Part shown: piece after piece, positions 21,809-54,966 of the stretch
How the letters are laid out: each line of letters opens with the position of its first letter
Numbering within the stretch: the first letter of the stretch is position 1
Assembly: GCA_965248195.1 (NCBI GenBank)
Contig: CBDFIQ010000001.1
Coordinates: 448,001 to 512,000 of the forward strand
Length of the DNA: 64,000 bases
Source of the DNA: Longimicrobiales bacterium
GTDB lineage: Bacteria; Gemmatimonadota; Gemmatimonadetes; Longimicrobiales; Gaopeijiaceae
Direction of reading: 5' to 3'
Program-made: the position numbers and the translations under genes
The notes under the pieces: model-generated
What the model was told of the DNA's origin: nothing
The model's input: only the letters and a program-made list of their open reading frames with translations
The model's database searches: none

Positions 21809-21929
21809 ACGGGCCGCATAACGTCTCTGCGATTCTGATCTTATAAGGCGAAAGGCTGACCTCACTCGAGCGTGGCGTTACGCTGATCTTGCTCAAAGGC
21901 CTGCGGCACCCAACCCAAGGAGGCCAGCC

Positions 21930-22967
21930 ATGTTTGTCGCAGGAATCGATGCTCACGCAACGTATTCGGTGATCGCCATCGTGAGCAACACAGGTCAGCT
22001 CGTTGCCGGACCCATCCGGATCAAGAACACGCAAGAGGATCGGCTCAATGATCTACTGGAGCAGTATCAGCCCCTGGAGGTGGTCGTCGAGACGAGTCCG
22101 GCCTGGCCGTGGCTCTTCGATCGACTCCAAGAGCGGGGGATCGACTTCGTGCTCGCTCACGCCAAGCGGCTCCGAGTCATCGCCGAGTCCAACTACAAGA
22201 GTGACGACATCGACGCCGAGTTGTTGGCGCGTATGCGACTCGCGGGCCTCATCCCCGAGGTCCATCCGAAGTGCGTCGAGCAGCGGGAGCAGGCGGTACT
22301 GCTACGCAACCGGGCACGACTCGTACGCGAACGCACACGCATGGTGAACCGCATCCATGCCCAGATCCACAACGTCGGGCTTCATCTGGAGCGTGGGCGT
22401 CTGCTCACCCAGGATGGACGCCAGTGGGTGCATGACGTGGCGTGGCCGCTGCTCGGAGCCGAGCGGCGTCTGTTCATCGACATGCAGTGGGAACTCATCG
22501 ACCAGATCGTGCCGATGATCAAAACGCTTGATCGCAGGGTTGAGCACGTAGGCCGCAAGGTCCCCGCTGTAGCTCTGCTCGAGACCATCCCGGGCGTCGG
22601 TTCCTATCGGGCATTGCTCATCGCCACCGAGACGTTGCCCATCAAACGATTTCGTACACCGGGGCACCTGGTCAGCTACGCCGGTCTAGCCCCTCGCTCC
22701 TCACAGTCAGGGCTCCGGCCCATCCGCCACGGATCGATCCCCGCCGGGGCCAACCGTTGGCTGAGGGGCACCTTCGTCCGGACCGTCGTGAGCCACGTCA
22801 CTCACGCGCCCGACAGCTGGCTATCACAGTCGTACGAACTGATCAGGCAACGGCTCGGGTGGCAGGTCGCTCGGGTCGCTACCGCTCGGCGCCTCGCTCG
22901 TGCTGTGCACGCGATGCTCCGTACGGGTGAGGTCTGGCACGATGAACCCGTGGCTCGATCAAACTGA
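21930..22967 (+). CDS. IS110-family recombinase/transposase
   Basis: DEDD residues in GIDAH, VVETS, KSDDIDA; TIPGVG; YAGLAPRSSQSG with the catalytic Ser. Confidence 0.95.
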   Translation: MFVAGIDAHATYSVIAIVSNTGQLVAGPIRIKNTQEDRLNDLLEQYQPLEVVVETSPAWPWLFDRLQERGIDFVLAHAKRLRVIAESNYKSDDIDAELLARMRLAGLIPEVHPKCVEQREQAVLLRNRARLVRERTRMVNRIHAQIHNVGLHLERGRLLTQDGRQWVHDVAWPLLGAERRLFIDMQWELIDQIVPMIKTLDRRVEHVGRKVPAVALLETIPGVGSYRALLIATETLPIKRFRTPGHLVSYAGLAPRSSQSGLRPIRHGSIPAGANRWLRGTFVRTVVSHVTHAPDSWLSQSYELIRQRLGWQVARVATARRLARAVHAMLRTGEVWHDEPVARSN

Positions 22968-23270
22968 GATGACACACGATGATGGACCGTACCACGACAG
23001 GGGTGAGCTCCGCGCGCAGCATGTCGCACGACGACCCTCAGATTCTGATTGAGCCCCCCGCTCGCATAGCAGATCTTCGGACATCCCCGCGCTGGGATGA
23101 AACCTGAATAGATGCCTGAGTTCCTCGTGAGAGGAGACTCACCCAAGATCGGACGCGACGTTGGTACTGAAGGATGAAAAACGGAAGATGATCACGCAGG
23201 CCTTGAGCTACAGACCAGTGGACCGAGCCACCCCTCCGGGACCCCGGACGGGTAAGGGAGGGCTACGCCC
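22968..23270 (+). ncRNA. Putative bridge RNA/seekRNA region of the IS1111-type element (RNA ends unknown)
   Basis: Target guides CGCGCAGCA (23013-21) and GATTCTG (23041-47); donor guides ATAGATG (23108-14) and AAGATCG (23145-51); each pair flanks a hairpin. Confidence 0.75.
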
Positions 23271-23586
23271 TGTTGACTCCCTTCACCTTATAGATGCTGC
23301 GCGGCTAATGTGGTGACCGCAAGCGAAGCGCGCGAGCCTCATGCTTACCGCGACTGCAGCAATCGCTTGTTAGAACGCCGTGCGGGGGCACTCCTGCCTT
23401 ACCCAGATCGGCGGCTAGTCGCAGCGTCTAGAACGCGTTCTGGGTCCACGCGAACGTCGTGGCCCAAACCAAGACTGCCGCGAACATCGCTACGGCCCCG
23501 GCTCCCACCGCAGTCTTCCTGGCCCTGAAGCCGACGACCAGAAAGTGCGATGAGGGCGAAGTTGGCAGATTCCCGGGAAGCGGCGG

Positions 23587-24555: not shown

Positions 24556-24703
24556 ATCATTCCTTCTCGTGTCGGTATCGTCGGCGGCCTCGTAGTCTCG
24601 CTCCTATCGAGACACCCGAGCAGAGGGTGTCGCTGAAGGGCGGCAATCGCTCTCGACTCGTCGATACTCGGATACTCGCCTGCCTTACACTATGCCGCGA
24701 AGC

Positions 24704-25933: not shown

Positions 25934-25934
25934 C

Positions 25935-28361: not shown

Positions 28362-28389
28362 GGGAGCAGCCCCATGAGTGAGAACCCGC

Positions 28390-30011: not shown

Positions 30012-30081
30012 TAGTGCGCTCCGCTCGCATAGCGTGCGAGCCTGATGGTCTCCGCGAGAGCAGCAGATACGCGGGTTAGCT
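30012..30081 (-). repeat. attC, R'' half only
   Basis: ..CGAGCCTGATG..CCGCGA..GCAGCAG..GTTAGCTGGCG; the end is complementary to the cassette start at 32800-32810. Confidence 0.7.
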
Positions 30082-30462
30082 GGCGTCGGCCGCTGTCCTA
30101 TCTTGTACTCCGCCACGGAACGGCATCCAAGGCGTTGTCACTTGCTGGCGCCGGGGAATCGCAGCGGTGATGGCCCAGAACTTGATACGGGCTACATGGT
30201 TCTCATCCTCGTAGACGCCTCGAACCGTTCGTCCCCCCGTGATCTCGTTCTGCTGTTTGTCGCTGACAAACCCTAATTCCTTATGCTCTCCAGGGTTGAG
30301 CATCAGTCCCACAGGCTCGTTTCGGGTAGACGTAATTTCACCGGATTCGTCCAGCCCCTCCAGCACCATCGTTGCGGGCATTTTCTGGACGAGCCTCAAT
30401 CCTCTCTTTCGTCTGATCTCGACGGAACCTGTCAACGACAATGGGACACTCTACGGGATTAA

Positions 30463-39177: not shown

Positions 39178-39279
39178 GCCTAACGTCTCGCGATTCTACT
39201 GCGCGGCCAATCTGGTCACCGAGCGCGGAACGCGCGAGCCCCCCGCTCCTGCCGCGACTGTAGCAATCGCTTGCTATGC
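39178..39279 (-). repeat. attC site (R'' mutated)
   Basis: GCCTAAC..GATTCTACTGCGCG..AATCGCTT-GCTATGC. Confidence 0.8.
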
Positions 39280-39338
39280 GGCTCCCTGGGTGGGACTGAG
39301 ACCGTTGTGGCATCCGAGCCCACATGTATCGCGCTTCC

Positions 39339-39905: not shown

Positions 39906-39981
39906 GGTCACGCCTCCGCGTTTGGGTGTGAGAGCGGCCAAGGCCCTGAACGACGCCACACGACAGCTGCCGGGGGGAGCC

Positions 39982-40082
39982 GCCTAACGTCTCTGCAATT
40001 CTGCTGCGCGCCTAATGTGGTGACCGCAAGCGAAGCGCGCGAGCCTGTTGCCTGCCGCGACTGCAGCAAACGCTTGTTAGGT
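39982..40082 (-). repeat. attC site, intact (101 bp)
   Basis: GCCTAAC..GTTAGGT with inner L-box inverted repeats. Confidence 0.88.
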
Positions 40083-40091
40083 AGCCGATCG

Positions 40092-40352
40092 CTATCTGTA
40101 GATGTCGCGTCGATGGCCGATCTTGACCACCGTGACGACGCGCTCATTATCGTCGACCACGTAGAGAATCCGGAACTGGCCCTGGCGGACTCGGTAACGA
40201 TCCTGGCCCGTGAGTTTCTCGCACCCCTGAGGACGCGGATCGACCTTCAGAGTGGAGATCTTGTCGACGATGCGAGTGCGGTCCGATTTACGGCCTACTG
40301 CTTCGAGCTCTTTGGCCGCGGAAGGCTTGATGAAAAGCTCATAGCTTTCCAC
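40092..40352 (-). CDS. relE: RelE/ParE family toxin
   Basis: DPRPQGCEKL..YRVRQGQFRILY..KIGHRRDIYR. Confidence 0.9.
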   Translation of the reverse strand: MESYELFIKPSAAKELEAVGRKSDRTRIVDKISTLKVDPRPQGCEKLTGQDRYRVRQGQFRILYVVDDNERVVTVVKIGHRRDIYR

Positions 40353-40572
40353 TGCGCCTCAAGTCCTTGACGACGCTCTCGAACGAGAGGTTGGGTTCAG
40401 AGGTTCTGGATTCGAACGCCTCCAAATCGGTGACGTCTTCCGAGAGGCTCTCGCGAACCGCCAAGTTGACGAGTTCCGAGAAGCTTCGATCGGTCTCTGC
40501 CGCCTTGAGGCGGAGGGCGCGATGAATCGACCCGTCGAAATAGACCGTGGTGCGGCGTGTATCCTCGCTCAT
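40339..40572 (-). CDS. CopG/RHH antitoxin
   Basis: RTTVYFDGSIHRALRLKAAETDRSFSELVN; overlaps the toxin gene. Confidence 0.85.
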   Translation of the reverse strand: MSEDTRRTTVYFDGSIHRALRLKAAETDRSFSELVNLAVRESLSEDVTDLEAFESRTSEPNLSFESVVKDLRRSGKL

Positions 40573-40621
40573 GCTCGCAATATGACCATATAACGTCATA
40601 GCGTCAAGACGTCACACGGCT

Positions 40622-40682
40622 ACCTAACGGATCTGCGATTCTGCTGAACGGCTAATGTGGTGACCGCAAGCGCAGCGTCGAC
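40622..40682 (-). repeat. attC, R' half (truncated)
   Basis: ACCTAACGGATCTGCGATTCTGCTGAACGGCTAATGTGGTGACCGCAAGCG. Confidence 0.75.
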
Positions 40683-40716
40683 CGCCCGAGATCCTGAGGG
40701 ACTTCTCCGGTTACGA

Positions 40717-41007
40717 CTATTCGGACCTACCCCGCGTTGAGATGACCCAGGCCACCAAGCCGAGAACGAGAAGGAGAACGTTCACCAAGACGAAGGACGC
40801 GCCGACCTTTTCCAGATAGGTCGGGTCCGTCGAGAAGAAGTGCGCGGGGCTCCACGTCGATCCGGTCTTGGTCGGAGTGAGGGGCATGACGACCGCGATC
40901 CCCAGAGCGATTGATTGAGTCACCAAAACGCCTGCGAGCCAATCGGGGAGACGATTCTGCGGATCCTTGCTGGGAGGCCTGCTGCCTTCGCGACCGGAAC
41001 GTGTCAT
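40717..41007 (-). CDS. Small hypothetical membrane protein (cassette)
   Basis: Two hydrophobic helices; RBS GAAGGTGAG; lies between attCs. Confidence 0.6.
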   Translation of the reverse strand: MTRSGREGSRPPSKDPQNRLPDWLAGVLVTQSIALGIAVVMPLTPTKTGSTWSPAHFFSTDPTYLEKVGASFVLVNVLLLVLGLVAWVISTRGRSE

Positions 41008-41059
41008 CTCACCTTCACTCCAATGGAACTCGGCCGGGAGAACCAAGGAAAGACTCGCC

Positions 41060-41160
41060 GTCTAACGTCTCTGCGATTCTGCTGCGCGCCAAAGATGCCC
41101 TCCGCAAGCGAAGCGCACGAGCCTGATGCATACCGCGAATGCAGCAATCGCTTGTTAGGC
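41060..41160 (-). repeat. attC site, intact (101 bp)
   Basis: GTCTAAC..GTTAGGC; unoccupied exact match to the IS110 target. Confidence 0.9.
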
Positions 41161-41529
41161 GTCATCACGCCTCGGCGACCTTAGCGAGATGATCAGGGCG
41201 GCCACCGCGCACAGAAGCGCGGCCCCTGGGACCAGCAAGAGCGGACGGGGAGCGCCCAGGGAAGCGCCGCTGATCAGCTGGGCTCCTACCACGCCTATTG
41301 AGAGGACGCCAGCGGCCCACACTAGGGATGGGGACCTTCCGAGTCTCTTAACAAGGAGGACCAAGGTGATTCCAGCCACGATGAGATTGAGGCCGATCCA
41401 TCGGGCCCAGGTGGCAAGCACTGGATCAAACCGGGCCAGATCCATTCCCTGCAGCGTCTCCGCCACCCACGGGAAGTCCACGACCTGATCGATCGTTAGG
41501 TTGAACGTTCCGATGCCGATACACCACAC
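41155..41529 (-). CDS. Hypothetical membrane protein (cassette; start uncertain)
   Basis: Hydrophobic; stop falls inside R''; cassette ends are complementary over 14 bp (GTTAGGCGTCATCA). Confidence 0.6.
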   Translation of the reverse strand: MWCIGIGTFNLTIDQVVDFPWVAETLQGMDLARFDPVLATWARWIGLNLIVAGITLVLLVKRLGRSPSLVWAAGVLSIGVVGAQLISGASLGAPRPLLLVPGAALLCAVAALIISLRSPRRDDA

Positions 41530-42010
41530 CGCGACGATGTAGAGCAGAATGGTTGGAAGTCTGTTAATGCCGTGCCGCCTTTGATGACGCCTAACGTCTC
41601 TGCGATTCTGATCTTATAAGGCGAAAGGCTGACCTCACTCGAGCGTGGCGTTACGCTGATCTTGCTCAAAGGCCTGCGGCACCCAACCCAAGGAGGCCAG
41701 CCATGTTTGTCGCAGGAATCGATGCTCACGCAACGTATTCGGTGATCGCCATCGTGAGCAATACAGGTCAGCTCGTGGCCGGACCCATCCGGATCAAGAA
41801 CACACAAGAGGATCGACTCGATGATCTACTTCAGCAGTATCAGCCCCTGGAGGTGGTCGTCGAGACGAGTCCGGCCTGGCCGTGGCTCTTCGATCGACTC
41901 CAAGAGCGGGGGATCGACTTCGTGCTCGCTCACGCCAAGCGGCTCCGAGTCATTGCCGAGTCCAACTACAAGAGTGACGACATCGACGCCGAGTTGTTGG
42001 CGCGTATGCG

Positions 42011-43386
42011 GGTAGTGTCCCTAGATTTGTGTAAAAGCGGATAAGCTGGACAGGAGGGAAAGAAAAACGGAAGCTCCTCTGTTGTTGTTCACTGTCACAT
42101 GAACCCGGGAGTCCGGGTCTGCAGAGCAGGCTCGGAACCGGAGAGGAGCTTCCGATGCAAGAGATTGTGGAGATCGGTCGGGCCACGCAAGACGAGCTAC
42201 GCGATGATTTGCGCGAGCTGTTTCAAGGCGCGATCCGGCTGACGCTCGAGATGGTGCTGGAAGAGGAGCTGAAGGCCATGGTAGGTGCACGCCGCTTCGA
42301 GCGGGTGGGAAGCCGGAAGGACCATAGGAACGGCACATACCTGAGGCGGCTGCTGACGAGCCTGGGGCAGATCGAGGTCGCCATGCCCCGGAGCCGGGAC
42401 AACGGTTCGCCGGCCGACGTGATCGGCCGCTACCAGCGCAGGAGCCCCGAGCTCGACGAGATGATGGTCGAGGCGTATGTGAGCGGCGTGTCACAGCGCA
42501 AGATGGGCGACGTCACCGAGGCGCTGATGGGCGAGCGTGTTGGGCGCTCGACGGTGAGTCGTGTGGCAAAACGGCTCGACGAGGCCGTGGAAGGGCTGCG
42601 CCGTGCGCCGATCGAGGGGCCTCACCCCTATCTGTACCTGGACGCCACGTTCTTGGACGCCCGCTGGGCCCGCAAAGTCGAGAACGTGAGTGCGCTCGTG
42701 GCGTATGCAGTGGGCCCTGAGGGTCACCGACGGCTCCTGGCCGTCACGCTGGGCGCTGAGGAGTCGCAGCAGAGCTGGTCGGAGCTCCTCGAGCAACTCC
42801 AGGACCGCGGCCTCGGCGGTGTCGAGCTCGTGATCGCCGATGAGCACGCAGGCCTGGCAGCTGCGGTCCGCCGCTTCCTGCCCGAGGCACGCCGTCAGAG
42901 GTGTACGGTCCATCTGCAGCGTAATGTGGGGGCGAGGGTCCCCCACCGCCTACGCAAGCGCGTGGCGCGTGAGGTCTCGGTGATCTTCCAGACATCCGGA
43001 CTCGCCGAGGCGAAGAAGCTCCTGGGCGAGTTCGGCGCACGCTGGAAGAAGGAGCTGCCCGAGGCCGTGGAGGTCCTGGAGCGGGGCTTCGGGGCAGCGA
43101 CGCAGTTCTACGCGTTCCCCGAGGCGCACTGGCCCCGGCTGCGTACCACCAACAGCCTCGAGCGGCTGCACGGCGAGATCAAACGCAGGATCAAGGCCGC
43201 CGGCGCCTTCCCGGACCGGGCCAGCGCCCTCAGGCTCATCACGGCCGTCGCACTCAGGACCACACACGTCTGGGGCGACCGGCGTTACCTCGACCTCTCA
43301 CTCCTCCAGAAACAGGAGGTCGCCCAAGCAGCCTAGCCGAAGGCGAGGAGCTTCCTCCGCTTTTACACACAAATCGGGACTTGACC
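42011..43386 (+). mobile_element. IS256-family IS, copy 5
   Basis: 1376 bp; TSD CGTATGCG. Confidence 0.95.
42155..43336 (+). CDS. IS256-family transposase
   Basis: Identical protein. Confidence 0.95.
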   Translation: MQEIVEIGRATQDELRDDLRELFQGAIRLTLEMVLEEELKAMVGARRFERVGSRKDHRNGTYLRRLLTSLGQIEVAMPRSRDNGSPADVIGRYQRRSPELDEMMVEAYVSGVSQRKMGDVTEALMGERVGRSTVSRVAKRLDEAVEGLRRAPIEGPHPYLYLDATFLDARWARKVENVSALVAYAVGPEGHRRLLAVTLGAEESQQSWSELLEQLQDRGLGGVELVIADEHAGLAAAVRRFLPEARRQRCTVHLQRNVGARVPHRLRKRVAREVSVIFQTSGLAEAKKLLGEFGARWKKELPEAVEVLERGFGAATQFYAFPEAHWPRLRTTNSLERLHGEIKRRIKAAGAFPDRASALRLITAVALRTTHVWGDRRYLDLSLLQKQEVAQAA

Positions 43387-45076
43387 CGTATGCGACTCGC
43401 GGGCCTCATCCCCGAGGTCCATCCGAAGTGCGTCGAGCAGCGGGAGCAGGCGGTACTGCTACGCAACCGGGCACGACTCGTACGCGAACGCACACGCATG
43501 GTGAACCGCATCCATGCCCAGATCCACAACGTCGGGCTTCATCTGGAGCGTGGGCGTCTGCTCACCCAGGATGGACGCCAGTGGGTGCATGACGTGGCGT
43601 GGCCGCTGCTCGGAGCCGAGCGGCGTCTGTTCATCGACATGCAGTGGGAACTCATCGACCAGATCGTGCCGATGATCAAAACGCTTGATCGCAGGGTTGA
43701 GCACGTAGGCCGCAAGGTCCCCGCTGTAGCTCTGCTCGAGACCATCCCGGGCGTCGGTTCCTATCGGGCATTGCTCATCGCCACCGAGACGTTGCCCATC
43801 AAACGATTTCGTACACCGGGGCACCTGGTCAGCTACGCCGGTCTAGCCCCTCGCTCCTCACAGTCAGGGCTCCGGCCCATCCGCCACGGATCGATCCCCG
43901 CCGGGGCCAACCGTTGGCTGAGGGGCACCTTCGTCCGGACCGTCGTGAGCCACGTCACTCACGCGCCCGACAGCTGGCTATCACAGTCGTACGAACTGAT
44001 CAGGCAACGGCTCGGGTGGCAGGTCGCTCGGGTCGCTACCGCTCGGCGCCTCGCTCGTGCTGTGCACGCGATGCTCCGTACGGGTGAGGTCTGGCACGAT
44101 GAACCCGTGGCTCGATCAAACTGAGATGACACACGATGATGGACCGTACCACGACAGGGGTGAGCTCCGCGCGCAGCATGTCGCACGACGACCCTCAGAT
44201 TCTGATTGAGCCCCCCGCTCGCATAGCAGATCTTCGGACATCCCCGCGCTGGGATGAAACCTGAATAGATGCCTGAGTTCCTCGTGAGAGGAGACTCACC
44301 CAAGATCGGACGCGACGTTGGTACTGAAGGATGAAAAACGGAAGATGATCACGCAGGCCTTGAGCTACAGACCAGTGGACCGAGCCACCCCTCCGGGACC
44401 CCGGACGGGTAAGGGAGGGCTACGCCCTGTTGACTCCCTTCACCTTATAGATGCTGCGCGGCTAATGTGGTGACCGCGGGCGAAGCGCGCGAGCGTGATA
44501 CCTACCGCGACAGTAGCGATCGCTTGTTAGACAGCGCTGAACCCGAGGTCGGCACTTGGATAGTTACCGCCGACCTCGCCTCCGTGGGCGGCCAGGACCT
44601 CTAGGACGAAATCAGTCTTGCCGTTCAGGTACGCAAGCCGGACGGTTCCGACTTCCTCCGCAAGGCGTTGCTTCAGTACCGCGTACTGACGGGCTATCTC
44701 CGAGTCCCCTCGGAGGGCATCGCGGAAGATCAACGTGTTGCGGGAGTAGCGAGAACTGGGTTCAGCCAACGAAACGTGGTGCTTTCGGAGGCCGTCGAGC
44801 GTGCGGGGGAAATAGTGTCGGTCCGGCAGGTCATCCTTCGCGCGATACTCGAAGCCCAGCGACTCTAGGGTCGGGACCACGGCCAGGGCCTCCACGAGAT
44901 CTGGAACCCCCACGAGAATGTCGACGATGGGCTTGGCCTCTAGTCCTGGAACCGACGTACTGCCCACGTGATCCACAGAGATGATCCACCGCGGGAGCCA
45001 GCGGATGAGTTCTCCACGAACCCGCTCGAACTCGAGCGGAACCTGTCAACGACAATGGGACACTCTACGGGATTAA

Positions 45077-46084
45077 TTAGAGAGCAATATCCTGTGTGGT
45101 GAGGGAAGGGATGGGAGGATTGATGTAGACGGCCTCCGGGAGCGGTTTGGGCTTCGGCACACCTGTGACGAAGCGTTCGGGATGAGCGGCCCATGCTTCG
45201 CGGAGCACGGATTTCCTGCCGGCAATGACCTGATCGGCGTTCCCGAAGTGGACCTGCTCGGGGGTTAGCATCGAGATACCGCCATGGCGGTGCTCGGCAT
45301 TGTACCAGCGGAAGAACGATCGACACAACGTCTTGGCCTGGCCCTGATCCCCGAACCGCCCGGGAAACGAGGGATGGTACTTCAAGGTTTTGAACTGAGC
45401 CTCGGAAAACGGGTTGTCATCCGACACCTGAGGCCGGCTCAACGAGCGAGTCACGCCGAGGTCAGCGAGAAGTTGAGCGGTGCATTGGCTCGTCATTGGA
45501 GCTCCCCGATCCGAGTGCAGGGTCAGGACCCGGGGCTGGACGCCATGCTTCAGGCAGCTCTGCTGGATCAACCGGCCGGCCAGGGCCGAGTTCTCCCGGT
45601 CCGCCACCATCCAGCCCACGACGTAGCGGCTGTAGATGTCCATGATGACGTAGAGGTAGTAATAGCTCCACTTCTTCGGCCCGAGTAGCCGCGTGATATC
45701 CCAGGACCACACCTGGTTCGGCGCCGTGGCCATCAACTCGGGCTTCTTGTACTCGGGATGGGTGCGCTGCGCCCGGCGTTCCTGAACCGGCACCTCGGAG
45801 GCCAGAACACGATACATCGTGCGTTCGCTGCACAGGTAGACCTCTTCGTCGAGCAGCGTGGCCACCACCTCGGCGGGTGAGCGGTCCACGAACCGCTCCG
45901 AACACAGCGTGTCGAAGACCTCGCCTCGTTCCGTCTCGCTCAATGCCCGGGCGGGCGTCGGGCGGGGCTGCCGTTGCCCGGTCGATGGGCCTCGACGACG
46001 GTAGAACGTCGATCGGGAGACCTCGAGAGCCGCGCACGCCGGTTTTACACCGACGTGCTTAGCCAGCTCATCGGCCGCCTTCAA
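45077..46084 (-). CDS. IS3-family OrfB
   Basis: Identical protein. Confidence 0.92.
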   Translation of the reverse strand: MKAADELAKHVGVKPACAALEVSRSTFYRRRGPSTGQRQPRPTPARALSETERGEVFDTLCSERFVDRSPAEVVATLLDEEVYLCSERTMYRVLASEVPVQERRAQRTHPEYKKPELMATAPNQVWSWDITRLLGPKKWSYYYLYVIMDIYSRYVVGWMVADRENSALAGRLIQQSCLKHGVQPRVLTLHSDRGAPMTSQCTAQLLADLGVTRSLSRPQVSDDNPFSEAQFKTLKYHPSFPGRFGDQGQAKTLCRSFFRWYNAEHRHGGISMLTPEQVHFGNADQVIAGRKSVLREAWAAHPERFVTGVPKPKPLPEAVYINPPIPSLTTQDIAL

Positions 46085-46530
46085 GAGTTCGTCCCGTCGT
46101 CGAGGCTTATCCCCAGCAGCCCCGCAACTTTTCCCTGCACGTCGATGATCAGGTGTGCCTTCCTGAGCTCATTCTCGAGCCGTGCGTTTTGCCGCTCCAG
46201 CTTGCGTACCTTCTCATCCAGCGGATTCCGCTCCGGCTTGCGGCCGCGTTTCTTCGACAGGGCCTTCAGCGACCCGCTATGCGCCGCCTTGCGCCACGTC
46301 GTCAGGTGCGACGAGTACAGGCCCTCGCGCCGCAGGAGCTGACCCACCTCGCCGGGCTCGGTGCACCGGTCCGCTTCTTCGACGATCCGCAGCTTGTACG
46401 ATGGACTGAACCGCCGGCGTAGCGGCCTATCTACTACCTCCGGGTCCGCAGGAGCTGCCGCGCTTCGCTTGGCCTCCCCGATTCCAGGGGCACTACCATT
46501 CTCTTCCATTCTCTCTCGCAGTCCCAACAT
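46081..46530 (-). CDS. IS3-family OrfA
   Basis: Identical protein. Confidence 0.9.
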   Translation of the reverse strand: MLGLRERMEENGSAPGIGEAKRSAAAPADPEVVDRPLRRRFSPSYKLRIVEEADRCTEPGEVGQLLRREGLYSSHLTTWRKAAHSGSLKALSKKRGRKPERNPLDEKVRKLERQNARLENELRKAHLIIDVQGKVAGLLGISLDDGTNS

Positions 46531-46815
46531 GTTCGTTTTCTCTGCCTTCGCCCTACTCTAATTCTTTGCGTGCTCCGTGTCTCACGTACGTTGGCAGAGA
46601 GGGAGCGGCCAAGCCTCATCGTACGGGCGCACGACAATCCCGGCGCCCTTCTCCATCCCGACGGAATCGGAAGACTGCATCAATGCCCCATACGTGGCGC
46701 GTTCTAACGTCTCTGCGATTCTGATCTTATAAGGCGAAAGGCTGACCTCACTCGAGCGTGGCGTTACGCTGATCTTGCTCAAAGGCCTGCGGCACCCAAC
46801 CCAAGGAGGCCAGCC

Positions 46816-47853
46816 ATGTTTGTCGCAGGAATCGATGCTCACGCAACGTATTCGGTGATCGCCATCGTGAGCAACACAGGTCAGCTCGTTGCCGGACCCA
46901 TCCGGATCAAGAACACGCAAGAGGATCGGCTCAATGATCTACTGGAGCAGTATCAGCCCCTGGAGGTGGTCGTCGAGACGAGTCCGGCCTGGCCGTGGCT
47001 CTTCGATCGACTCCAAGAGCGGGGGATCGACTTCGTGCTCGCTCACGCCAAGCGGCTCCGAGTCATCGCCGAGTCCAACTACAAGAGTGACGACATCGAC
47101 GCCGAGTTGTTGGCGCGTATGCGACTCGCGGGCCTCATCCCCGAGGTCCATCCGAAGTGCGTCGAGCAGCGGGAGCAGGCGGTACTGCTACGCAACCGGG
47201 CACGACTCGTACGCGAACGCACACGCATGGTGAACCGCATCCATGCCCAGATCCACAACGTCGGGCTTCATCTGGAGCGTGGGCGTCTGCTCACCCAGGA
47301 TGGACGCCAGTGGGTGCATGACGTGGCGTGGCCGCTGCTCGGAGCCGAGCGGCGTCTGTTCATCGACATGCAGTGGGAACTCATCGACCAGATCGTGCCG
47401 ATGATCAAAACGCTTGATCGCAGGGTTGAGCACGTAGGCCGCAAGGTCCCCGCTGTAGCTCTGCTCGAGACCATCCCGGGCGTCGGTTCCTATCGGGCAT
47501 TGCTCATCGCCACCGAGACGTTGCCCATCAAACGATTTCGTACACCGGGGCACCTGGTCAGCTACGCCGGTCTAGCCCCTCGCTCCTCACAGTCAGGGCT
47601 CCGGCCCATCCGCCACGGATCGATCCCCGCCGGGGCCAACCGTTGGCTGAGGGGCACCTTCGTCCGGACCGTCGTGAGCCACGTCACTCACGCGCCCGAC
47701 AGCTGGCTATCACAGTCGTACGAACTGATCAGGCAACGGCTCGGGTGGCAGGTCGCTCGGGTCGCTACCGCTCGGCGCCTCGCTCGTGCTGTGCACGCGA
47801 TGCTCCGTACGGGTGAGGTCTGGCACGATGAACCCGTGGCTCGATCAAACTGA
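46816..47853 (+). CDS. IS110-family recombinase
   Basis: Identical 345 aa. Confidence 0.95.
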   Translation: MFVAGIDAHATYSVIAIVSNTGQLVAGPIRIKNTQEDRLNDLLEQYQPLEVVVETSPAWPWLFDRLQERGIDFVLAHAKRLRVIAESNYKSDDIDAELLARMRLAGLIPEVHPKCVEQREQAVLLRNRARLVRERTRMVNRIHAQIHNVGLHLERGRLLTQDGRQWVHDVAWPLLGAERRLFIDMQWELIDQIVPMIKTLDRRVEHVGRKVPAVALLETIPGVGSYRALLIATETLPIKRFRTPGHLVSYAGLAPRSSQSGLRPIRHGSIPAGANRWLRGTFVRTVVSHVTHAPDSWLSQSYELIRQRLGWQVARVATARRLARAVHAMLRTGEVWHDEPVARSN

Positions 47854-48156
47854 GATGACACACGATGATGGACCGTACCACGACAGGGGTGAGCTCCGCG
47901 CGCAGCATGTCGCACGACGACCCTCAGATTCTGATTGAGCCCCCCGCTCGCATAGCAGATCTTCGGACATCCCCGCGCTGGGATGAAACCTGAATAGATG
48001 CCTGAGTTCCTCGTGAGAGGAGACTCACCCAAGATCGGACGCGACGTTGGTACTGAAGGATGAAAAACGGAAGATGATCACGCAGGCCTTGAGCTACAGA
48101 CCAGTGGACCGAGCCACCCCTCCGGGACCCCGGACGGGTAAGGGAGGGCTACGCCC
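47854..48156 (+). ncRNA. Putative bridge/seekRNA region, copy 3
   Basis: Matches the copy 1 non-coding region. Confidence 0.7.
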
Positions 48157-48324
48157 TGTTGACTCCCTTCACCTTATAGATGCTGCGCGGCTAAGATGCC
48201 CTCCGCAAGCGGAGCGCGCGAGCCTGATGCTTACCGCGACCGCAGCAATCGCTTGTTAGAACGTGCCTAGCAACCTTTGTACTACAGATGCACTCTTCTC
48301 AACAAAACACCCGGGAATCATCAC

Positions 48325-49017
48325 ATGCAGCCAATCGGTCCCGTTGAGCCCGATCTCGTGACCATTCCCGCCGGAGACTTTCTCATGGGAAGCGAAACCG
48401 GCGCCGGTAATGAAAAGCCAGTGCACCGCGTATGGGTGGATGCCTTTGCGATCGCCAGATATCCCGTGACGCGTCGAGACTATGCGGCCTTTCTCGAAGC
48501 CACCGGGCATCCGCCAACAAAGTTCTGGGGTGATCCCAGATTTCAGCTCCCGAATCAGCCTGTTGTGAGTCCGAGTTGGTTCGACGCTGTTGCCTACTGC
48601 GATTGGTTGTCCGGGCAGACCCGCAAACACTACCGTTTGCCCACAGAAGCCGAGAGGGAAAAAGCAGCTCGCGGCGGGCTGGAAGGGTGCGACTATCCCT
48701 GGGGCAACGAGCCACCGGAAGACTTGCGCGGAGTGAACCCGCCTCTAGAAGAAGTGGGGACAGAGGGTCCCAACGGCTACGGACTTTACAATATGTCCGT
48801 CGGCGTGCACGAGTGGTGCTCGGATCGCTATAGCCCGAACTATTATGAGGCGTCTCCAAACCGAAACCCCGAAGGACCCTCCGGCGGCGACCGTCGTGCA
48901 GCACGCGGAGGGGCCTGGCGGCATGCCGTCCGGTACTCCCGCTGCTCGGCGCGAAGCAGCATCGGCCCAGAGAAGACGTTCAACGATTTCGGCTTTCGTT
49001 GTGCCCTGACGCTTTGA
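48325..49017 (+). CDS. Formylglycine-generating enzyme (SUMF1) family protein
   Basis: IPAGDFLMGS, RLPTEAEREKAARGG, NGYGLYNM, GFRC. Confidence 0.9.
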   Translation: MQPIGPVEPDLVTIPAGDFLMGSETGAGNEKPVHRVWVDAFAIARYPVTRRDYAAFLEATGHPPTKFWGDPRFQLPNQPVVSPSWFDAVAYCDWLSGQTRKHYRLPTEAEREKAARGGLEGCDYPWGNEPPEDLRGVNPPLEEVGTEGPNGYGLYNMSVGVHEWCSDRYSPNYYEASPNRNPEGPSGGDRRAARGGAWRHAVRYSRCSARSSIGPEKTFNDFGFRCALTL

Positions 49018-49367
49018 CTGCGGACGAGACGGCTACTCGATTAGGCGAGGTCTCATCCCCCTTAATGACACCTCGAAACGCAACCAGATTGGCGAAGAAA
49101 TCCCGGCTCAGCCCCGTTAAGGCGGCCTGTTCCTCGATTCGGTGGTGGCGCTCCTCCCAGCATGCCTGGATCCCAAAGCCCGATCGCTACTCCCTCGACC
49201 GTGATCCGGAGCCTCGGAATGTCAGGTGCCCGTTACCTGGCTGCCGGGGCGTGGCCTAACGGATTTGCGATTCTGATCTTATAAGGCGAAAGGCTGACCT
49301 CACTCGAGCGTGGCGTTACGCTGATCTTGCTCAAAGGCCTGCGGCACCCAACCCAAGGAGGCCAGCC

Positions 49368-50405
49368 ATGTTTGTCGCAGGAATCGATGCTCACGCAACG
49401 TATTCGGTGATCGCCATCGTGAGCAACACAGGTCAGCTCGTTGCCGGACCCATCCGGATCAAGAATACGCAAGAGGATCGGCTCAATGATCTACTGGAGC
49501 AGTATCAGCCCCTGGAGGTGGTCGTCGAGACGAGTCCGGCCTGGCCGTGGCTCTTCGATCGACTCCAAGAGCGGGGGATCGACTTCGTGCTCGCTCACGC
49601 CAAGCGGCTCCGAGTCATCGCCGAGTCCAACTACAAGAGTGACGACATCGACGCCGAGTTGTTGGCGCGTATGCGACTCGCGGGCCTCATCCCCGAGGTC
49701 CATCCGAAGTGCGTCGAGCAGCGGGAGCAGGCGGTACTGCTACGCAACCGGGCACGACTCGTACGCGAACGCACACGCATGGTGAACCGCATCCATGCCC
49801 AGATCCACAACGTCGGGCTTCATCTGGAGCGTGGGCGTCTGCTCACCCAGGATGGACGCCAGTGGGTGCATGACGTGGCGTGGCCGCTGCTCGGAGCCGA
49901 GCGGCGTCTGTTCATCGACATGCAGTGGGAACTCATCGACCAGATCGTGCCGATGATCAAAACGCTTGATCGCAGGGTTGAGCACGTAGGCCGCAAGGTC
50001 CCCGCTGTAGCTCTGCTCGAGACCATCCCGGGCGTCGGTTCCTATCGGGCATTGCTCATCGCCACCGAGACGTTGCCCATCAAACGATTTCGTACACCGG
50101 GGCACCTGGTCAGCTACGCCGGTCTAGCCCCTCGCTCCTCACAGTCAGGGCTCCGGCCCATCCGCCACGGATCGATCCCCGCCGGGGCCAACCGTTGGCT
50201 GAGGGGCACCTTCGTCCGGACCGTCGTGAGCCACGTCACTCACGCGCCCGACAGCTGGCTATCACAGTCGTACGAACTGATCAGGCAACGGCTCGGGTGG
50301 CAGGTCGCTCGGGTCGCTACCGCTCGGCGCCTCGCTCGTGCTGTGCACGCGATGCTCCGTACGGGTGAGGTCTGGCACGATGAACCCGTGGCTCGATCAA
50401 ACTGA
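49368..50405 (+). CDS. IS110-family recombinase
   Basis: Identical 345 aa. Confidence 0.95.
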   Translation: MFVAGIDAHATYSVIAIVSNTGQLVAGPIRIKNTQEDRLNDLLEQYQPLEVVVETSPAWPWLFDRLQERGIDFVLAHAKRLRVIAESNYKSDDIDAELLARMRLAGLIPEVHPKCVEQREQAVLLRNRARLVRERTRMVNRIHAQIHNVGLHLERGRLLTQDGRQWVHDVAWPLLGAERRLFIDMQWELIDQIVPMIKTLDRRVEHVGRKVPAVALLETIPGVGSYRALLIATETLPIKRFRTPGHLVSYAGLAPRSSQSGLRPIRHGSIPAGANRWLRGTFVRTVVSHVTHAPDSWLSQSYELIRQRLGWQVARVATARRLARAVHAMLRTGEVWHDEPVARSN

Positions 50406-50708
50406 GATGACACACGATGATGGACCGTACCACGACAGGGGTGAGCTCCGTGCGCAGCATGTCGCACGACGACCCTCAGATTCTGATTGAGCCCCCCGCT
50501 CGCATAGCAGATCTTCGGACATCCCCGCGCTGGGATGAAACCTGAATAGATGCCTGAGTTCCTCGTGAGAGGAGACTCACCCAAGATCGGACGCGACGTT
50601 GGTACTGAAGGATGAAAAACGGAAGATGATCACGCAGGCCTTGAGCTACAGACCAGTGGACCGAGCCACCCCTCCGGGACCCCGGACGGGTAAGGGAGGG
50701 CTACGCCC
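50406..50708 (+). ncRNA. Putative bridge/seekRNA region, copy 4
   Basis: As copy 1, with C>T at 50451. Confidence 0.7.
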
Positions 50709-50850
50709 TGTTGACTCCCTTCACCTTATAGATGCTGCGCGGCTAATGTGGTGACCGCAAGCGAAGCGCGCGAGCCTGATGCCAACCGCGACTGCAGCAA
50801 TCGCTTGTTAGGCAGCTGGCGGTGATCGGCCAACTCGCAACGCTCGGGAC

Positions 50851-51780
50851 TCAACCCACCGGATAACAAGCGAGGTCCTCGCCGACTCTCACGACTCCGT
50901 CGTAGCGAGTCCTGACCTCAGTAACGCCCTCCTCGAGGTCCCCAACGAATAGGTGACTGAGGATTAACTGTTCGACGTCCGCGTCCGCAGCAACTTGGCC
51001 AACGACGTCGGGGGTTGCATGGAAATCGAGCGTTTCCCCCGATGCCGTGGGGGAGACTGCCAGGTGCATCACCAAAGCCGAGGCGTTGCGTGAAAATGAG
51101 ACGAAGGCTGGGTCGCTGCCGGTCTGATCACCGCTGAACACAACGCTCACGCCCTGAGCCTCCACCCGGTAGGCGAGCGAGGGGACATTCGCATGCGGCA
51201 CTGGTAGCGCACGCACCGTCAGACCCGCTTCCTGCAAGATCACGGTGGAGCCAGCCATTTCGACATCAACCATTACCGGGTCGAGACGCACGCCTCGCCC
51301 TGGCCCGCCGAGTGTGCCGCCGAGAATCTGAAAGGCACCAGCCTCCGGATCGAAGAGCCGCGAGAGAAACAGGTTCAGCGGTGGGTAGGCCTCGTTTCCG
51401 GAAGGACCCGCGATACGAAGTGGCTCTTGGCGGAGGCCATCACTCAGCCAGAGAATGGCGGAAAGGCCAGAAACGTGGTCTGGATGAAAATGGCTGAGTG
51501 CGAGGAGATCCAAGTCCGCCAGCTGCGCGCCCGACTCGCCGACGCGCAGAAACGATCCTCCACCTGCGTCCACCATGATCCGGGAACGACCATCGACCCA
51601 AACCACATAGCTAGACGAGGCTCGACCCGTTCCAGCGCGTGGGCCACCAGACCCGAGGACCTGCACGGCCACGCCGGTAGCGGGGCACTGCTCTTGATCG
51701 ACGACGCAGGACGATGCAAAAAAAACGAAGAGGAAGCATGTCGTGTGGAACACCCGCAAGTTGAGACCCATATTCGGCAT
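50851..51780 (-). CDS. MBL-fold metallo-hydrolase (RNase Z/arylsulfatase-like), cassette gene
   Basis: LGSGGP, SHFHPDH, FSGD, LSH; cassette ends complementary over 14 bp (GTTAGGCAGCTGGC). Confidence 0.88.
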   Translation of the reverse strand: MPNMGLNLRVFHTTCFLFVFFASSCVVDQEQCPATGVAVQVLGSGGPRAGTGRASSSYVVWVDGRSRIMVDAGGGSFLRVGESGAQLADLDLLALSHFHPDHVSGLSAILWLSDGLRQEPLRIAGPSGNEAYPPLNLFLSRLFDPEAGAFQILGGTLGGPGRGVRLDPVMVDVEMAGSTVILQEAGLTVRALPVPHANVPSLAYRVEAQGVSVVFSGDQTGSDPAFVSFSRNASALVMHLAVSPTASGETLDFHATPDVVGQVAADADVEQLILSHLFVGDLEEGVTEVRTRYDGVVRVGEDLACYPVG

Positions 51781-51942
51781 CCCTTTCTCTTCGACAAGAT
51801 CCGAGCGTAAGCCCGCTGGGAGCCAGCTGCCTAACGGATCTGCGATTCTGATCTTATAAGGCGAAAGGCTGACCTCACTCGAGCGTGGCGTTACGCTGAT
51901 CTTGCTCAAAGGCCTGCGGCACCCAACCCAAGGAGGCCAGCC

Positions 51943-52980
51943 ATGTTTGTCGCAGGAATCGATGCTCACGCAACGTATTCGGTGATCGCCATCGTGAGCA
52001 ACACAGGTCAGCTCGTTGCCGGACCCATCCGGATCAAGAACACGCAAGAGGATCGGCTCAATGATCTACTGGAGCAGTATCAGCCCCTGGAGGTGGTCGT
52101 CGAGACGAGTCCGGCCTGGCCGTGGCTCTTCGATCGACTCCAAGAGCGGGGGATCGACTTCGTGCTCGCTCACGCCAAGCGGCTCCGAGTCATCGCCGAG
52201 TCCAACTACAAGAGTGACGACATCGACGCCGAGTTGTTGGCGCGTATGCGACTCGCGGGCCTCATCCCCGAGGTCCATCCGAAGTGCGTCGAGCAGCGGG
52301 AGCAGGCGGTACTGCTACGCAACCGGGCACGACTCGTACGCGAACGCACACGCATGGTGAACCGCATCCATGCCCAGATCCACAACGTCGGGCTTCATCT
52401 GGAGCGTGGGCGTCTGCTCACCCAGGATGGACGCCAGTGGGTGCATGACGTGGCGTGGCCGCTGCTCGGAGCCGAGCGGCGTCTGTTCATCGACATGCAG
52501 TGGGAACTCATCGACCAGATCGTGCCGATGATCAAAACGCTTGATCGCAGGGTTGAGCACGTAGGCCGCAAGGTCCCCGCTGTAGCTCTGCTCGAGACCA
52601 TCCCGGGCGTCGGTTCCTATCGGGCATTGCTCATCGCCACCGAGACGTTGCCCATCAAACGATTTCGTACACCGGGGCACCTGGTCAGCTACGCCGGTCT
52701 AGCCCCTCGCTCCTCACAGTCAGGGCTCCGGCCCATCCGCCACGGATCGATCCCCGCCGGGGCCAACCGTTGGCTGAGGGGCACCTTCGTCCGGACCGTC
52801 GTGAGCCACGTCACTCACGCGCCCGACAGCTGGCTATCACAGTCGTACGAACTGATCAGGCAACGGCTCGGGTGGCAGGTCGCTCGGGTCGCTACCGCTC
52901 GGCGCCTCGCTCGTGCTGTGCACGCGATGCTCCGTACGGGTGAGGTCTGGCACGATGAACCCGTGGCTCGATCAAACTGA
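51943..52980 (+). CDS. IS110-family recombinase
   Basis: Identical 345 aa. Confidence 0.95.
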   Translation: MFVAGIDAHATYSVIAIVSNTGQLVAGPIRIKNTQEDRLNDLLEQYQPLEVVVETSPAWPWLFDRLQERGIDFVLAHAKRLRVIAESNYKSDDIDAELLARMRLAGLIPEVHPKCVEQREQAVLLRNRARLVRERTRMVNRIHAQIHNVGLHLERGRLLTQDGRQWVHDVAWPLLGAERRLFIDMQWELIDQIVPMIKTLDRRVEHVGRKVPAVALLETIPGVGSYRALLIATETLPIKRFRTPGHLVSYAGLAPRSSQSGLRPIRHGSIPAGANRWLRGTFVRTVVSHVTHAPDSWLSQSYELIRQRLGWQVARVATARRLARAVHAMLRTGEVWHDEPVARSN

Positions 52981-53142
52981 GATGACACACGATGATGGAC
53001 CGTACCACGACAGGGGTGAGCTCCGCGCGCAGCATGTCGCACGACGACCCTCAGATTCTGATTGAGCCCCCCGCTCGCATAGCAGATCTTCGGACATCCC
53101 CGCGGAACCTGTCAACGACAATGGGACACTCTACGGGATTAA

Positions 53143-54150
53143 TTAGAGAGCAATATCCTGTGTGGTGAGGGAAGGGATGGGAGGATTGATGTAGACGGCC
53201 TCCGGGAGCGGTTTGGGCTTCGGCACACCTGTGACGAAGCGTTCGGGATGAGCGGCCCATGCTTCGCGGAGCACGGATTTCCTGCCGGCAATGACCTGAT
53301 CGGCGTTCCCGAAGTGGACCTGCTCGGGGGTTAGCATCGAGATACCGCCATGGCGGTGCTCGGCATTGTACCAGCGGAAGAACGATCGACACAACGTCTT
53401 GGCCTGGCCCTGATCCCCGAACCGCCCGGGAAACGAGGGATGGTACTTCAAGGTTTTGAACTGAGCCTCGGAAAACGGGTTGTCATCCGACACCTGAGGC
53501 CGGCTCAACGAGCGAGTCACGCCGAGGTCAGCGAGAAGTTGAGCGGTGCATTGGCTCGTCATTGGAGCTCCCCGATCCGAGTGCAGGGTCAGGACCCGGG
53601 GCTGGACGCCATGCTTCAGGCAGCTCTGCTGGATCAACCGGCCGGCCAGGGCCGAGTTCTCCCGGTCCGCCACCATCCAGCCCACGACGTAGCGGCTGTA
53701 GATGTCCATGATGACGTAGAGGTAGTAATAGCTCCACTTCTTCGGCCCGAGTAGCCGCGTGATATCCCAGGACCACACCTGGTTCGGCGCCGTGGCCATC
53801 AACTCGGGCTTCTTGTACTCGGGATGGGTGCGCTGCGCCCGGCGTTCCTGAACCGGCACCTCGGAGGCCAGAACACGATACATCGTGCGTTCGCTGCACA
53901 GGTAGACCTCTTCGTCGAGCAGCGTGGCCACCACCTCGGCGGGTGAGCGGTCCACGAACCGCTCCGAACACAGCGTGTCGAAGACCTCGCCTCGTTCCGT
54001 CTCGCTCAATGCCCGGGCGGGCGTCGGGCGGGGCTGCCGTTGCCCGGTCGATGGGCCTCGACGACGGTAGAACGTCGATCGGGAGACCTCGAGAGCCGCG
54101 CACGCCGGTTTTACACCGACGTGCTTAGCCAGCTCATCGGCCGCCTTCAA
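53143..54150 (-). CDS. IS3-family OrfB
   Basis: Identical protein. Confidence 0.92.
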   Translation of the reverse strand: MKAADELAKHVGVKPACAALEVSRSTFYRRRGPSTGQRQPRPTPARALSETERGEVFDTLCSERFVDRSPAEVVATLLDEEVYLCSERTMYRVLASEVPVQERRAQRTHPEYKKPELMATAPNQVWSWDITRLLGPKKWSYYYLYVIMDIYSRYVVGWMVADRENSALAGRLIQQSCLKHGVQPRVLTLHSDRGAPMTSQCTAQLLADLGVTRSLSRPQVSDDNPFSEAQFKTLKYHPSFPGRFGDQGQAKTLCRSFFRWYNAEHRHGGISMLTPEQVHFGNADQVIAGRKSVLREAWAAHPERFVTGVPKPKPLPEAVYINPPIPSLTTQDIAL

Positions 54151-54596
54151 GAGTTCGTCCCGTCGTCGAGGCTTATCCCCAGCAGCCCCGCAACTTTTCC
54201 CTGCACGTCGATGATCAGGTGTGCCTTCCTGAGCTCATTCTCGAGCCGTGCGTTTTGCCGCTCCAGCTTGCGTACCTTCTCATCCAGCGGATTCCGCTCC
54301 GGCTTGCGGCCGCGTTTCTTCGACAGGGCCTTCAGCGACCCGCTATGCGCCGCCTTGCGCCACGTCGTCAGGTGCGACGAGTACAGGCCCTCGCGCCGCA
54401 GGAGCTGACCCACCTCGCCGGGCTCGGTGCACCGGTCCGCTTCTTCGACGATCCGCAGCTTGTACGATGGACTGAACCGCCGGCGTAGCGGCCTATCTAC
54501 TACCTCCGGGTCCGCAGGAGCTGCCGCGCTTCGCTTGGCCTCCCCGATTCCAGGGGCACTACCATTCTCTTCCATTCTCTCTCGCAGTCCCAACAT
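54147..54596 (-). CDS. IS3-family OrfA
   Basis: Identical protein. Confidence 0.9.
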   Translation of the reverse strand: MLGLRERMEENGSAPGIGEAKRSAAAPADPEVVDRPLRRRFSPSYKLRIVEEADRCTEPGEVGQLLRREGLYSSHLTTWRKAAHSGSLKALSKKRGRKPERNPLDEKVRKLERQNARLENELRKAHLIIDVQGKVAGLLGISLDDGTNS

Positions 54597-54966
54597 GTTC
54601 GTTTTCTCTGCCTTCGCCCTACTCTAATTCTTTGCGTGCTCCGTGTCTCACGTACGTTGGCAGAGAGGGCCGCGCTGGGATGAAACCTGAATAGATGCCT
54701 GAGTTCCTCGTGAGAGGAGACTCACCCAAGATCGGACGCGACGTTGGTACTGAAGGATGAAAAACGGAAGATGATCACGCAGGCCTTGAGCTACAGACCA
54801 GTGGACCGAGCCACCCCTCCGGGACCCCGGACGGGTAAGGGAGGGCTACGCCCTGTTGACTCCCTTCACCTTATAGATGCTGCGCGGCTAAGATGCCCTC
54901 CGCAAGCGGAGCGCGCGACCCTCCCGTTCTCGCGACTGCAGCAATCGCTTGTTAGATGGCGGCGGG

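Follow-up and report, generated by a model that had tools for sequence, protein, structure and literature searches.

Five copies of one insertion sequence interrupt integron attC sites at the same nucleotide in the 64,000-nt stretch of DNA analysed here (the window), while other attCs beside them are empty, and this raises the question of what decides which sites are taken. An earlier note on this DNA had described these insertions as identical in position and orientation and opposite to the array; coordinates, flanks and strands all bear this out. The element is of IS1111 type, measures 1,459 bp including one TG core, and splits attC at the same TG in every copy. Since it lies on the + strand and the cassette ORFs of the window lie on the − strand, ending at attC R″ boxes, it is antisense to the array. 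The copies start at 21838, 41611, 46724, 49276 and 51851, with left and right flanks as first described. Copy 1 (21838–23296, cores at 21836–21837 and 23295–23296) is intact and lies about 16 kb away from the main array; its attC (− strand) is divided into the R′ box, spacer and part of L′ at 21816–21837 and a remainder at 23297–23375. Copy 3 (46724–48182, attC halves at 46702–46723 and 48183–48261) is intact and identical to copy 1 in sequence, and copy 4 (49276–50734), also intact, carries a C>T variant at 50451, the distal base of the right target guide. In copy 2 (41611–44453, attC halves at 41589–41610 and 44454–44532) the transposase is interrupted by an IS256 element (42011–43386, 8-bp duplication), and in copy 5 (51851–54879) the transposase is intact and an IS3-like element (53105–54669) breaks the donor loop of the guide RNA. 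Full-length copies in the genome are 99.3–100% identical, with the exception of C1:1101022 at 96.8%, and some are mosaics. The host probably belongs to Gemmatimonadota. From these sequences, it is very likely that the element has spread through the attC sites of this genome lately, by RNA-guided recombination.

The target sites carry the RYYYAAC...GTTRRRY boxes and the bottom-strand hairpin with extra-helical bases expected of attCs, with an ORF ending at R″. The constrained attC fold lies at most 1.2 kcal/mol from the minimum free energy (MFE) in 8/9 occupied sites, and several empty attCs do not adopt the canonical fold at MFE. The box names used here (R′, L′, L″, R″) follow the usual nomenclature. 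Both ORF orientation and fold fit the assignment of the insertion TG to the L′ arm, where the earlier note had placed it.

The 345-aa protein encoded at 21930–22967 (+ strand, PF01548 and PF02371) is an RNA-guided transposase of the IS110 family, with DEDD RuvC-like domain residues D7-E54-D92-D95, a C-terminal domain with the catalytic-serine SG, and a score of 194 bits against the NF033542 profile (cut-off 140). The IS1111 group is described as having transposases of 330–350 aa with a GL-P----S(t)G motif (PMC11187229, in part) and sub-terminal inverted repeats of 7–17 bp (PMC11208160, in part). Here the motif GL-P----SG occupies residues 252–261, and the 14-bp repeats at 21842–21855 and 23279–23292 (both + strand) are complementary at 12/14 positions. 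The transposase gene is flanked by 92 bp of non-coding sequence upstream and about 330 bp downstream, the long 3′ region of IS1111 elements. The protein is 24–25% identical to the IS4321-like and ISPa21 proteins with which it was compared, and its best plasmid matches are haloarchaeal and alphaproteobacterial proteins of 29–34% identity. It is deep-branching in a transposase tree whose deep branches are without resolution and some of whose branches are long.

A predicted bridge/seek RNA spans 23000–23155 of this 3′ region (+ strand, ends approximate), where RNAalifold on 33 sequences gave 21 pairs with compensatory changes in 8. Its target loop is closed by the stem 23002–23010/23051–23058 and is followed by the donor loop (+ strand). 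The right target guide (23013–23021, +) is complementary to the core and 7 nt of right flank and precedes the left one (23041–23047, +), which is identical to 5 nt of left flank and the core, so that the top-strand complement comes before the bottom-strand match as in IS1111 elements. The putative right donor guide (23071–23075, +) has a core pairing one shorter than most relatives; the left donor guide (23108–23114, +) by inspection tracks the right end of the element in relatives, with L035 and L038 as exceptions. Across relatives the target guides track the flanks, the left at 4.08/5 positions against 1.88 when shuffled (62 pairs) and the right at 6.10/7 against 2.45 (42 pairs), scores reached in 0/20,000 shuffles that ignore kinship. 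Judged from this covariation the target guides are real, which supports the guides predicted in the earlier note. Position −5 is the least enforced, matched in 33/62 guide–flank pairs, and from +8 onwards matches are at background level in relatives (9 and 13 of 45). No Rfam family was matched in the window, copy 1 yielded no hit when scanned for promoters and terminators, and inspection revealed neither a convincing junction promoter nor a clear pattern for handshake-guide rules. Contigs of the RNA run span parts of the element, and contigs cannot show expression.

Five empty attCs of the window (all − strand) read as the earlier note described them. The full-length site at 41060–41160 contains an exact target at 41075–41088, the sole exact 14-nt target in the window and, as claimed, its only exact unoccupied one; two contigs of run X1, possibly the source sample, show it empty as well. 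The other two full-length sites have the core changed to TA (39178–39282) or a single wobble-type mismatch at −5 (39982–40082); the latter is an rG:dT wobble, falls where matching is least enforced, and is probably tolerated. The remaining two are half-sites, one without the R″ arm and with two mismatches (40622–40678), the other with one mismatch and with a repeated element end in place of the R″ arm (20556–20626). That list had missed an attC of opposite orientation whose R′ end is damaged and which has three mismatches (58065–58168, + strand), and also a remnant near 30013–30083. Among the 15 joints listed from assembled contigs of 4 runs, none was an insertion at 41060, a precise excision restoring attC or a circle joint; these read-derived nulls are no evidence of absence, because contigs drop rare variants. 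Contig joints between attCs look like sites of other organisms.

Inside the window the contrast between occupied and empty sites is weak (5/5 against 1/5 exact, p = 0.024; full-length only, 5/5 against 1/3, p = 0.11), and it is strong only genome-wide. There, full-length attCs match the 14-nt target exactly in 9/9 occupied and 2/13 empty cases (p = 1e-4), so that 9/11 full-length exact targets are used; with partial attCs included, the counts are 9/10 and 2/25. Of the mismatched examples in the earlier note, two are half-sites (20556, 40622) and one is a wobble that the element probably tolerates (39982). With wobbles allowed (39982 and C1:47811), 9/9 occupied and 4/13 empty sites match (p = 0.0014). 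One pair of occupied attCs is identical, so that independence of all nine events is not assured; with the pair counted once, the contrast is 8/8 against 2/13 (p = 2e-4). Base composition predicts 0.06 exact 14-nt matches genome-wide and two were found, both in attCs, with no exact 14-mer outside attCs in the genome. The earlier note had regarded copies at non-attC or guide-mismatched sites as evidence against its reading, and three copies go some way in that direction: C2:1762333 (partial, left flank without attC match), C2:1909506 (partial, +7 mismatch in the flank) and C2:833209 (an occupied attC with a wobble and without the R″ arm). Across the whole genome, the natural specificity test that it proposed stands, and three controls leave it intact. 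Also in favour of guide matching, 17/21 full-length empty attCs are exact in regions of two relatives, G141 and G346, that contain only IS fragments, a sample subject to the upward bias described below.

If the element works as ISKpn4, ISEc11 and IS621 do, its 3′ region would be transcribed and the RNA bound by the transposase, and the element would form a circle or be copied out. The target guides would then pair with about 5 nt to the left and 7 nt to the right of a TG on the L′ side, at which recombination would insert the element. The opposite attC arm mismatches the guide because of an extra-helical base there, which would fix the orientation. Most exact targets have been consumed, so that mainly mismatched attCs remain empty. 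The same contrast might be produced by age, if empty sites were merely older and more decayed or if occupied ones had been copied from a single IS-bearing attC. Empty sites do carry about twice the divergence outside the guides (0.097 against 0.045 per base), and the identical occupied pair and the mosaic copies point the same way. Yet the contrast is sharpest over the guide footprint, where 14-nt windows that begin at −10 to 0 give p ≤ 0.0011 and every other window p ≥ 0.022. It also persists when only those empty sites are kept whose divergence elsewhere does not exceed that of the most diverged occupied site (1/8 exact). Occupied attCs also belong to several subtypes with differing flanking genes, and none of the window cassettes (14 segments) is duplicated elsewhere in the genome. 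This explanation is largely refuted, and we consider it highly improbable.

Two further explanations were weighed. In one, to which we give a small chance, the host escapes, and its empty attCs are not leftovers but sites that the presence of the element has driven to change where the guides would pair. With occupied sites added back, 11/22 attCs are exact here against 17/21 full-length empty attCs (12/14 in G141, 5/7 in G346) in two relatives with only IS fragments in the regions examined (p = 0.034), and the core G is the position most often changed in empty sites (4/13). The control is, however, biased upward because the patterns that picked the regions contained part of the target; with a pattern that ignores the central 7 nt the comparison becomes only 2/8 against 5/6 (p = 0.051). 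The empty attCs of this genome are also more decayed overall, and with intI truncated there would be little benefit in free attCs. The other explanation, somewhat better placed but still doubtful, is that the attC hairpin and guide pairing together gate insertion and that the two empty exact sites fold poorly. A target stem-loop gate, reading sequence plus structure, has been reported for ISPpu10 (10.64898/2026.03.19.712850, in part), many non-attC relatives lie, by eye, in repeat-like sequence, and the canonical fold at 41060 is weak (−14.8 kcal/mol). One occupied site is nevertheless weaker still (−11.3), the other empty exact site, C1:1100236, has a stable fold (−21.3), and C2:833209 is occupied despite its missing R″ arm. 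Fold strength as the reason for the two empty exact sites is unsupported by these energies.

Each insertion puts 1.46 kb into the attC hairpin and probably inactivates the attC, and immobilisation of the cassettes, proposed earlier for ISPa21 (PMC11616780, in part), is plausible. It is moot here, since the only intI found in the genome is 5′-truncated, a C-terminal fragment, and for the same reason the arrays were probably frozen already. In G141, the same attC family lies beside an IntI-like frame that scores over the cut-off, matched only from profile position 90; eight short intI loci showed little attC signal. Composite cassette movement between IS copies was rejected from the same 14 segments, whose only full-length repeat is an element end. 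Directly repeated copies might take over from IntI as cassette mobiliser.

Relatives, whose target classes were labelled by hand and HMM, insert at five positions of the same attC family in a single orientation. The TG cores used lie at −8, at 0, at +3, at the apex and in the R″ box, and all insertions run antisense to the cassettes. One +3 sibling, L084, is 90% identical; another (L088, 88% identical) occupies an attC whose TA core the main element cannot use, and a second IS110 in the genome occupies the R″ box of an attC mismatched to the main element. In the tree, attC-targeters interleave with elements of other targets, so that an AU test of the two kinds is trivial. Taken together, the findings suggest that attC was adopted as a target more than once and at several positions, which would make it a landing site open to RNA-guided IS in general, with no single clade owning it. 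More tentatively, a Gemmatimonadota IS1111-like lineage may have reached attC independently, its guides sliding along the same attC and its siblings sharing the target space; if true, guide sliding would amount to guide RNAs and integron sites racing each other in nature. In this genome, bridge/seek-RNA specificity can be read from natural insertions (about 5+2+7 nt, with −5 weak and wobble accepted) for a TG-core lineage far from characterised recombinases, and the naturally reprogrammed, near-identical pairs among relatives are directly testable.

An IS1111-attC group with ISPa21, ISKpn4, ISPst6 and ISPa25 as members is attributed to Tetu and Holmes in 2008 and Post and Hall in 2009. The present element resembles it in using one fixed attC position, antisense to the cassettes, and in its sub-terminal repeats and 3′ non-coding region. 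As in that group, several copies occur per array, and the group's elements insert near the attC 5′ end (PMC3001079, in part). The earlier note had linked it to ISPa21 and ISPst6, a link that does not hold for ISPa21, taken here as the element that follows smr in pME-1a and pKKp4-VIM and so named in PMC7232449 and PMC5724420. Identity is 25% (blastp E 7e-5, an IS4321-like protein being closer at 9e-13), the repeat sequence differs, and ISPa21 has its insertion point in L″, next to R″ and to the stop codon of the cassette, whereas the present element lies in L′ beside R′. One clade with ISPa21 was rejected (AU p = 0.0008, 28 rows, long branches, only ISPa21 standing for the group), and from these sequences the lineage seems to have reached attC independently. 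Nothing on attC-targeting IS appears in PMC5034289 or 10.64898/2026.08.14.744561. With the two loops, four guides and dinucleotide core of the IS621 bridge RNA, the element also shares the tolerance of few mismatches and the acceptance of rG:dT wobble (PMC11208160, PMC13626964, both in part). Unlike IS621, it has a TG core and not CT, its RNA at the right end, the guide order reversed, long sub-terminal repeats, and attC and not REP as target. The IS1111 seekRNAs of ISEc11, ISKpn4 and ISPa11 likewise have the RNA 3′ with the top-strand-complementary guide first, and ISEc11/ISXne4 display natural reprogramming between close relatives (PMC11187229, in part), as do close relatives of the present element. 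The mechanism itself is already published, as seekRNA/bridge RNA and for the IS1111-attC group, and is left unchanged by these findings; what sets the present lineage apart from the IS1111 seekRNAs is its deep-branching transposase, a second, donor-matching loop readable downstream and repeated retargeting within one target element.

The five insertions described in the earlier note, starting at 21838, 41611, 46724, 49276 and 51851, were all verified in the window together with their flanks and common orientation, each lying on the + strand. The element, 1,459 bp long when a single TG core is counted, codes for an IS110-family transposase of 345 aa that carries DEDD and SG motifs; close relatives of this protein are mostly from Gemmatimonadota or Longimicrobiales. 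Its sub-terminal repeats of 14 bp are complementary at 12/14 positions, and its 3′ non-coding region spans 330 bp. Across the assembly (4.86 Mb in two contigs, C1 and C2, with the window at C1:448001-512000; 91.8% complete) we found 13 left and 11 right ends, both being present in 10 copies. The genome carries a very heavy IS load (~104 full IS256 and ~50 IS3-like copies), and copies 41611 and 51851 are interrupted by an IS256 and an IS3-like element, respectively. Three copies (41611-44453, C2:833209 and C1:1101022) are mosaics of two haplotypes ~3% apart, which suggests recombination or gene conversion among copies.

The repeats at these sites read RYYYAAC...GTTRRRY and allow a fold in which the R and L boxes pair, some bases bulge out and the spacer is asymmetric. 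For 8 of the 9 occupied sites that were rebuilt, this constrained attC fold lies ≤1.2 kcal/mol from the minimum, and in several empty sites the canonical fold is not the minimum-energy one. Cassette ORFs lie on the - strand with their stop codons at the right-hand box, so the + strand is the bottom strand and the IS runs antisense to the array. The TG core accordingly falls in L′, adjoining R′, in attC box nomenclature; the 20556 and 40622 sites lack an R″ arm. The attC family at 39178-41160 has a spacer of 8-9 nt on the R′ side and a 6-versus-2 unpaired region in its fold, and its contig depth is high in the marine-sediment runs examined. Cassettes in the window include a ParE-type toxin-antitoxin in the array (40092-40599), one with three short ORFs that overlap, two of them weakly matching AhpD-like peroxidases (20788-21713), and one with a + strand gene opposite to the array (48277-49017) resembling formylglycine-generating-enzyme-domain proteins, with PvdO/SenA matches below cut-off. 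IntI has a single match in the genome, the C-terminal fragment of a 5′-truncated intI (C1:1112697-1113260), located between an aldo-keto reductase gene and an IS256 in the same direction as the neighbouring cassettes; queries with the IntI frames of eight relatives did not find the N-terminal half in this incomplete assembly. In G141, a genome of the same genus, the same attC family lies next to an IntI-like frame that has the same direction as the cassettes.

The right target guide (23013-23021) is a 9-nt complement of the core and right flank, followed downstream by the left target guide (23041-23047), a 7-nt copy of the left flank and core, and then by donor-matching stretches at 23071-23075 and 23108-23114. 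This guide order is that of IS1111 seekRNAs (PMC11187229). We gathered relatives from GTDB (57 loci) and from metagenomes (the best 80 of 131 loci), analysing 135 loci in which guides were delimited through conserved neighbouring motifs without reference to flanks. In this set, with metagenome loci limited to the best 80 of 131, left guides matched their flank at 4.08/5 bases (shuffled 1.88; 62 distinct pairs) and right guides at 6.10/7 (shuffled 2.45; 42 pairs, leaving out L036 and L109, whose ends were mis-called); none of 20,000 shuffles, which ignore kinship, attained these values. In the same set, position -5 was weakly matched (33/62), and +8 and +9 matched at background level only. In a consensus fold computed from 33 sequences, the guides remain unpaired between stems, and 8/21 pairs show compensatory change. 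At locus L036 (about 3700-4200), the right end of the element, guide RNA included, is partly duplicated in tandem. The sole non-coding substitution among the copies in our genome replaces C by T at the distal position of the right target guide in two copies (window 50451 and the C1:1101022 copy); it would extend pairing to A or G, including the +7 A beside the C2:1909506 copy, although any connection between the two is speculation.

The earlier note had proposed that the array offers an in-genome specificity test, and the genome-wide comparison bears this out: all 9 full-length occupied sites match the 14-nt target exactly versus 2/13 empty ones (p=1e-4), or 9/10 versus 2/25 when all sites are included. 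An HMM-defined set, with one site swapped, again gave 2/13 exact empty sites, and 4/13 with wobbles allowed (p=0.0014). The genome holds two exact empty 14-mers, both within attCs, against 0.06 expected from composition. Most parsimoniously, the majority of usable targets are already filled.

Several observations count against a guide-specificity reading: the empty sites are more decayed overall than the occupied ones, two occupied attCs (46702-48261 and C1:1081412-1082972) are identical over their whole length with differing neighbouring genes, and one occupied site has a wobble. In addition, two partial copies have a non-attC or mismatched flank, a kind of insertion that the earlier note regarded as contrary to its claim. 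Three controls were carried out. In sliding windows, the contrast between occupied and empty sites falls on the guide footprint, and of the 8 empty sites whose divergence elsewhere does not exceed that of the worst occupied site, 1 is exact. In chosen regions of G141 and a second related genome, G346, both carrying fragments of the IS only, 17 of the 21 empty attCs of full length match exactly (p=3e-4), the regions having been chosen with patterns including part of the target; a guide-blind pattern gave only 2/8 versus 5/6 (p=0.051). The occupancy statistics are well supported.

With the attC model of our genome applied at the core (E<0.1), 35 of 128 loci with a readable flank matched, all in bottom-strand orientation, again with metagenome loci limited to the best 80 of 131. 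In this set the core stands at position 0 in 22 loci, at +3 in 6 plus 3 of a second attC family, at -8 in 1, in the R″ box in 2, and at the apex of a longer attC subtype in 1; most of the remaining loci are flanked by sequence other than attC, which on visual inspection often resembles repeats. Sister clades (L034, L041, L046, L048, L052 and L112-L136) are aimed at short repeats other than attC in Gemmatimonadota-like DNA, which appear to be REP-like families. The relatives L084, L087 and L088, with transposases 88-90% identical to that of our genome, have their insertion point moved by 3 nt, and the readable guides are moved to suit (left and right for L084, right for L087 and L088); L088 sits in a TA-core attC. 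On a 54-row tree with rows hand-picked and labels assigned by hand, there are at least 7 switches between attC and other targets and at least 11 changes of target class. Another IS110 in the genome, distantly related (C1:34661-36700; ~36% to L050), truncated and broken by an IS256, starts at a TG within the R″ box of attC C1:34574-34668, which has a 1-nt deletion within the target of the 1,459-bp IS; a right end was not found at this locus. The common orientation rests on perhaps three independent origins and is therefore a pattern, not proof. Since read-through transcription promotes IS621 excision (PMC13626964), antisense insertion may favour persistence.

Four consecutive attCs are split, from 41611 to 51851, so the cassettes from 41160 to 54957 lack an intact pair of sites around them. 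Their immobilisation is plausible, as proposed for ISPa21 on limited experimental evidence (PMC11616780), and in this genome it ranks behind the truncation of intI. It would in principle be reversible through precise excision, a process described as inefficient for IS621 (PMC13626964), and a copy-out route would keep the donor in place (10.64898/2026.08.31.748434). Nothing indicated that cassettes had moved between IS copies. Public contigs were examined for insertion at 41060, as the earlier note advised: the site is empty in those of one run, possibly the source sample, and the joints listed include neither a circle nor a new insertion.

Elements of the IS1111 family that target attC, and their seekRNAs, are published (PMC11187229, PMC3001079, PMC11089894, PMC11616780 and PMC11208160), and PMC7232449 and PMC5724420 give the name ISPa21 to the element that follows smr in pME-1a and pKKp4-VIM. 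The mechanism is already known, and the feature itself is real. Membership in the ISPa21/ISPst6 subgroup, which the earlier note cited, does not hold: ISPa21 shares 25% identity with our element's protein, has different repeats, and inserts in L″ beside R″, whereas ours inserts in L′ beside R′. A 28-row tree places the Gemmatimonadota lineage in one clade (98/99) and joins ISPa21 to an IS4321-like protein (99/97), rejecting ISPa21 plus the lineage as one group (p=0.0008, with a long-branch warning). A literature search thin on subscription papers found no published account of the Gemmatimonadota lineage or of several insertion positions inside attC. The element acts like the IS1111-attC group without belonging to it, and what is new is an independent lineage, the opposite L box and repeated retargeting inside one attC family.
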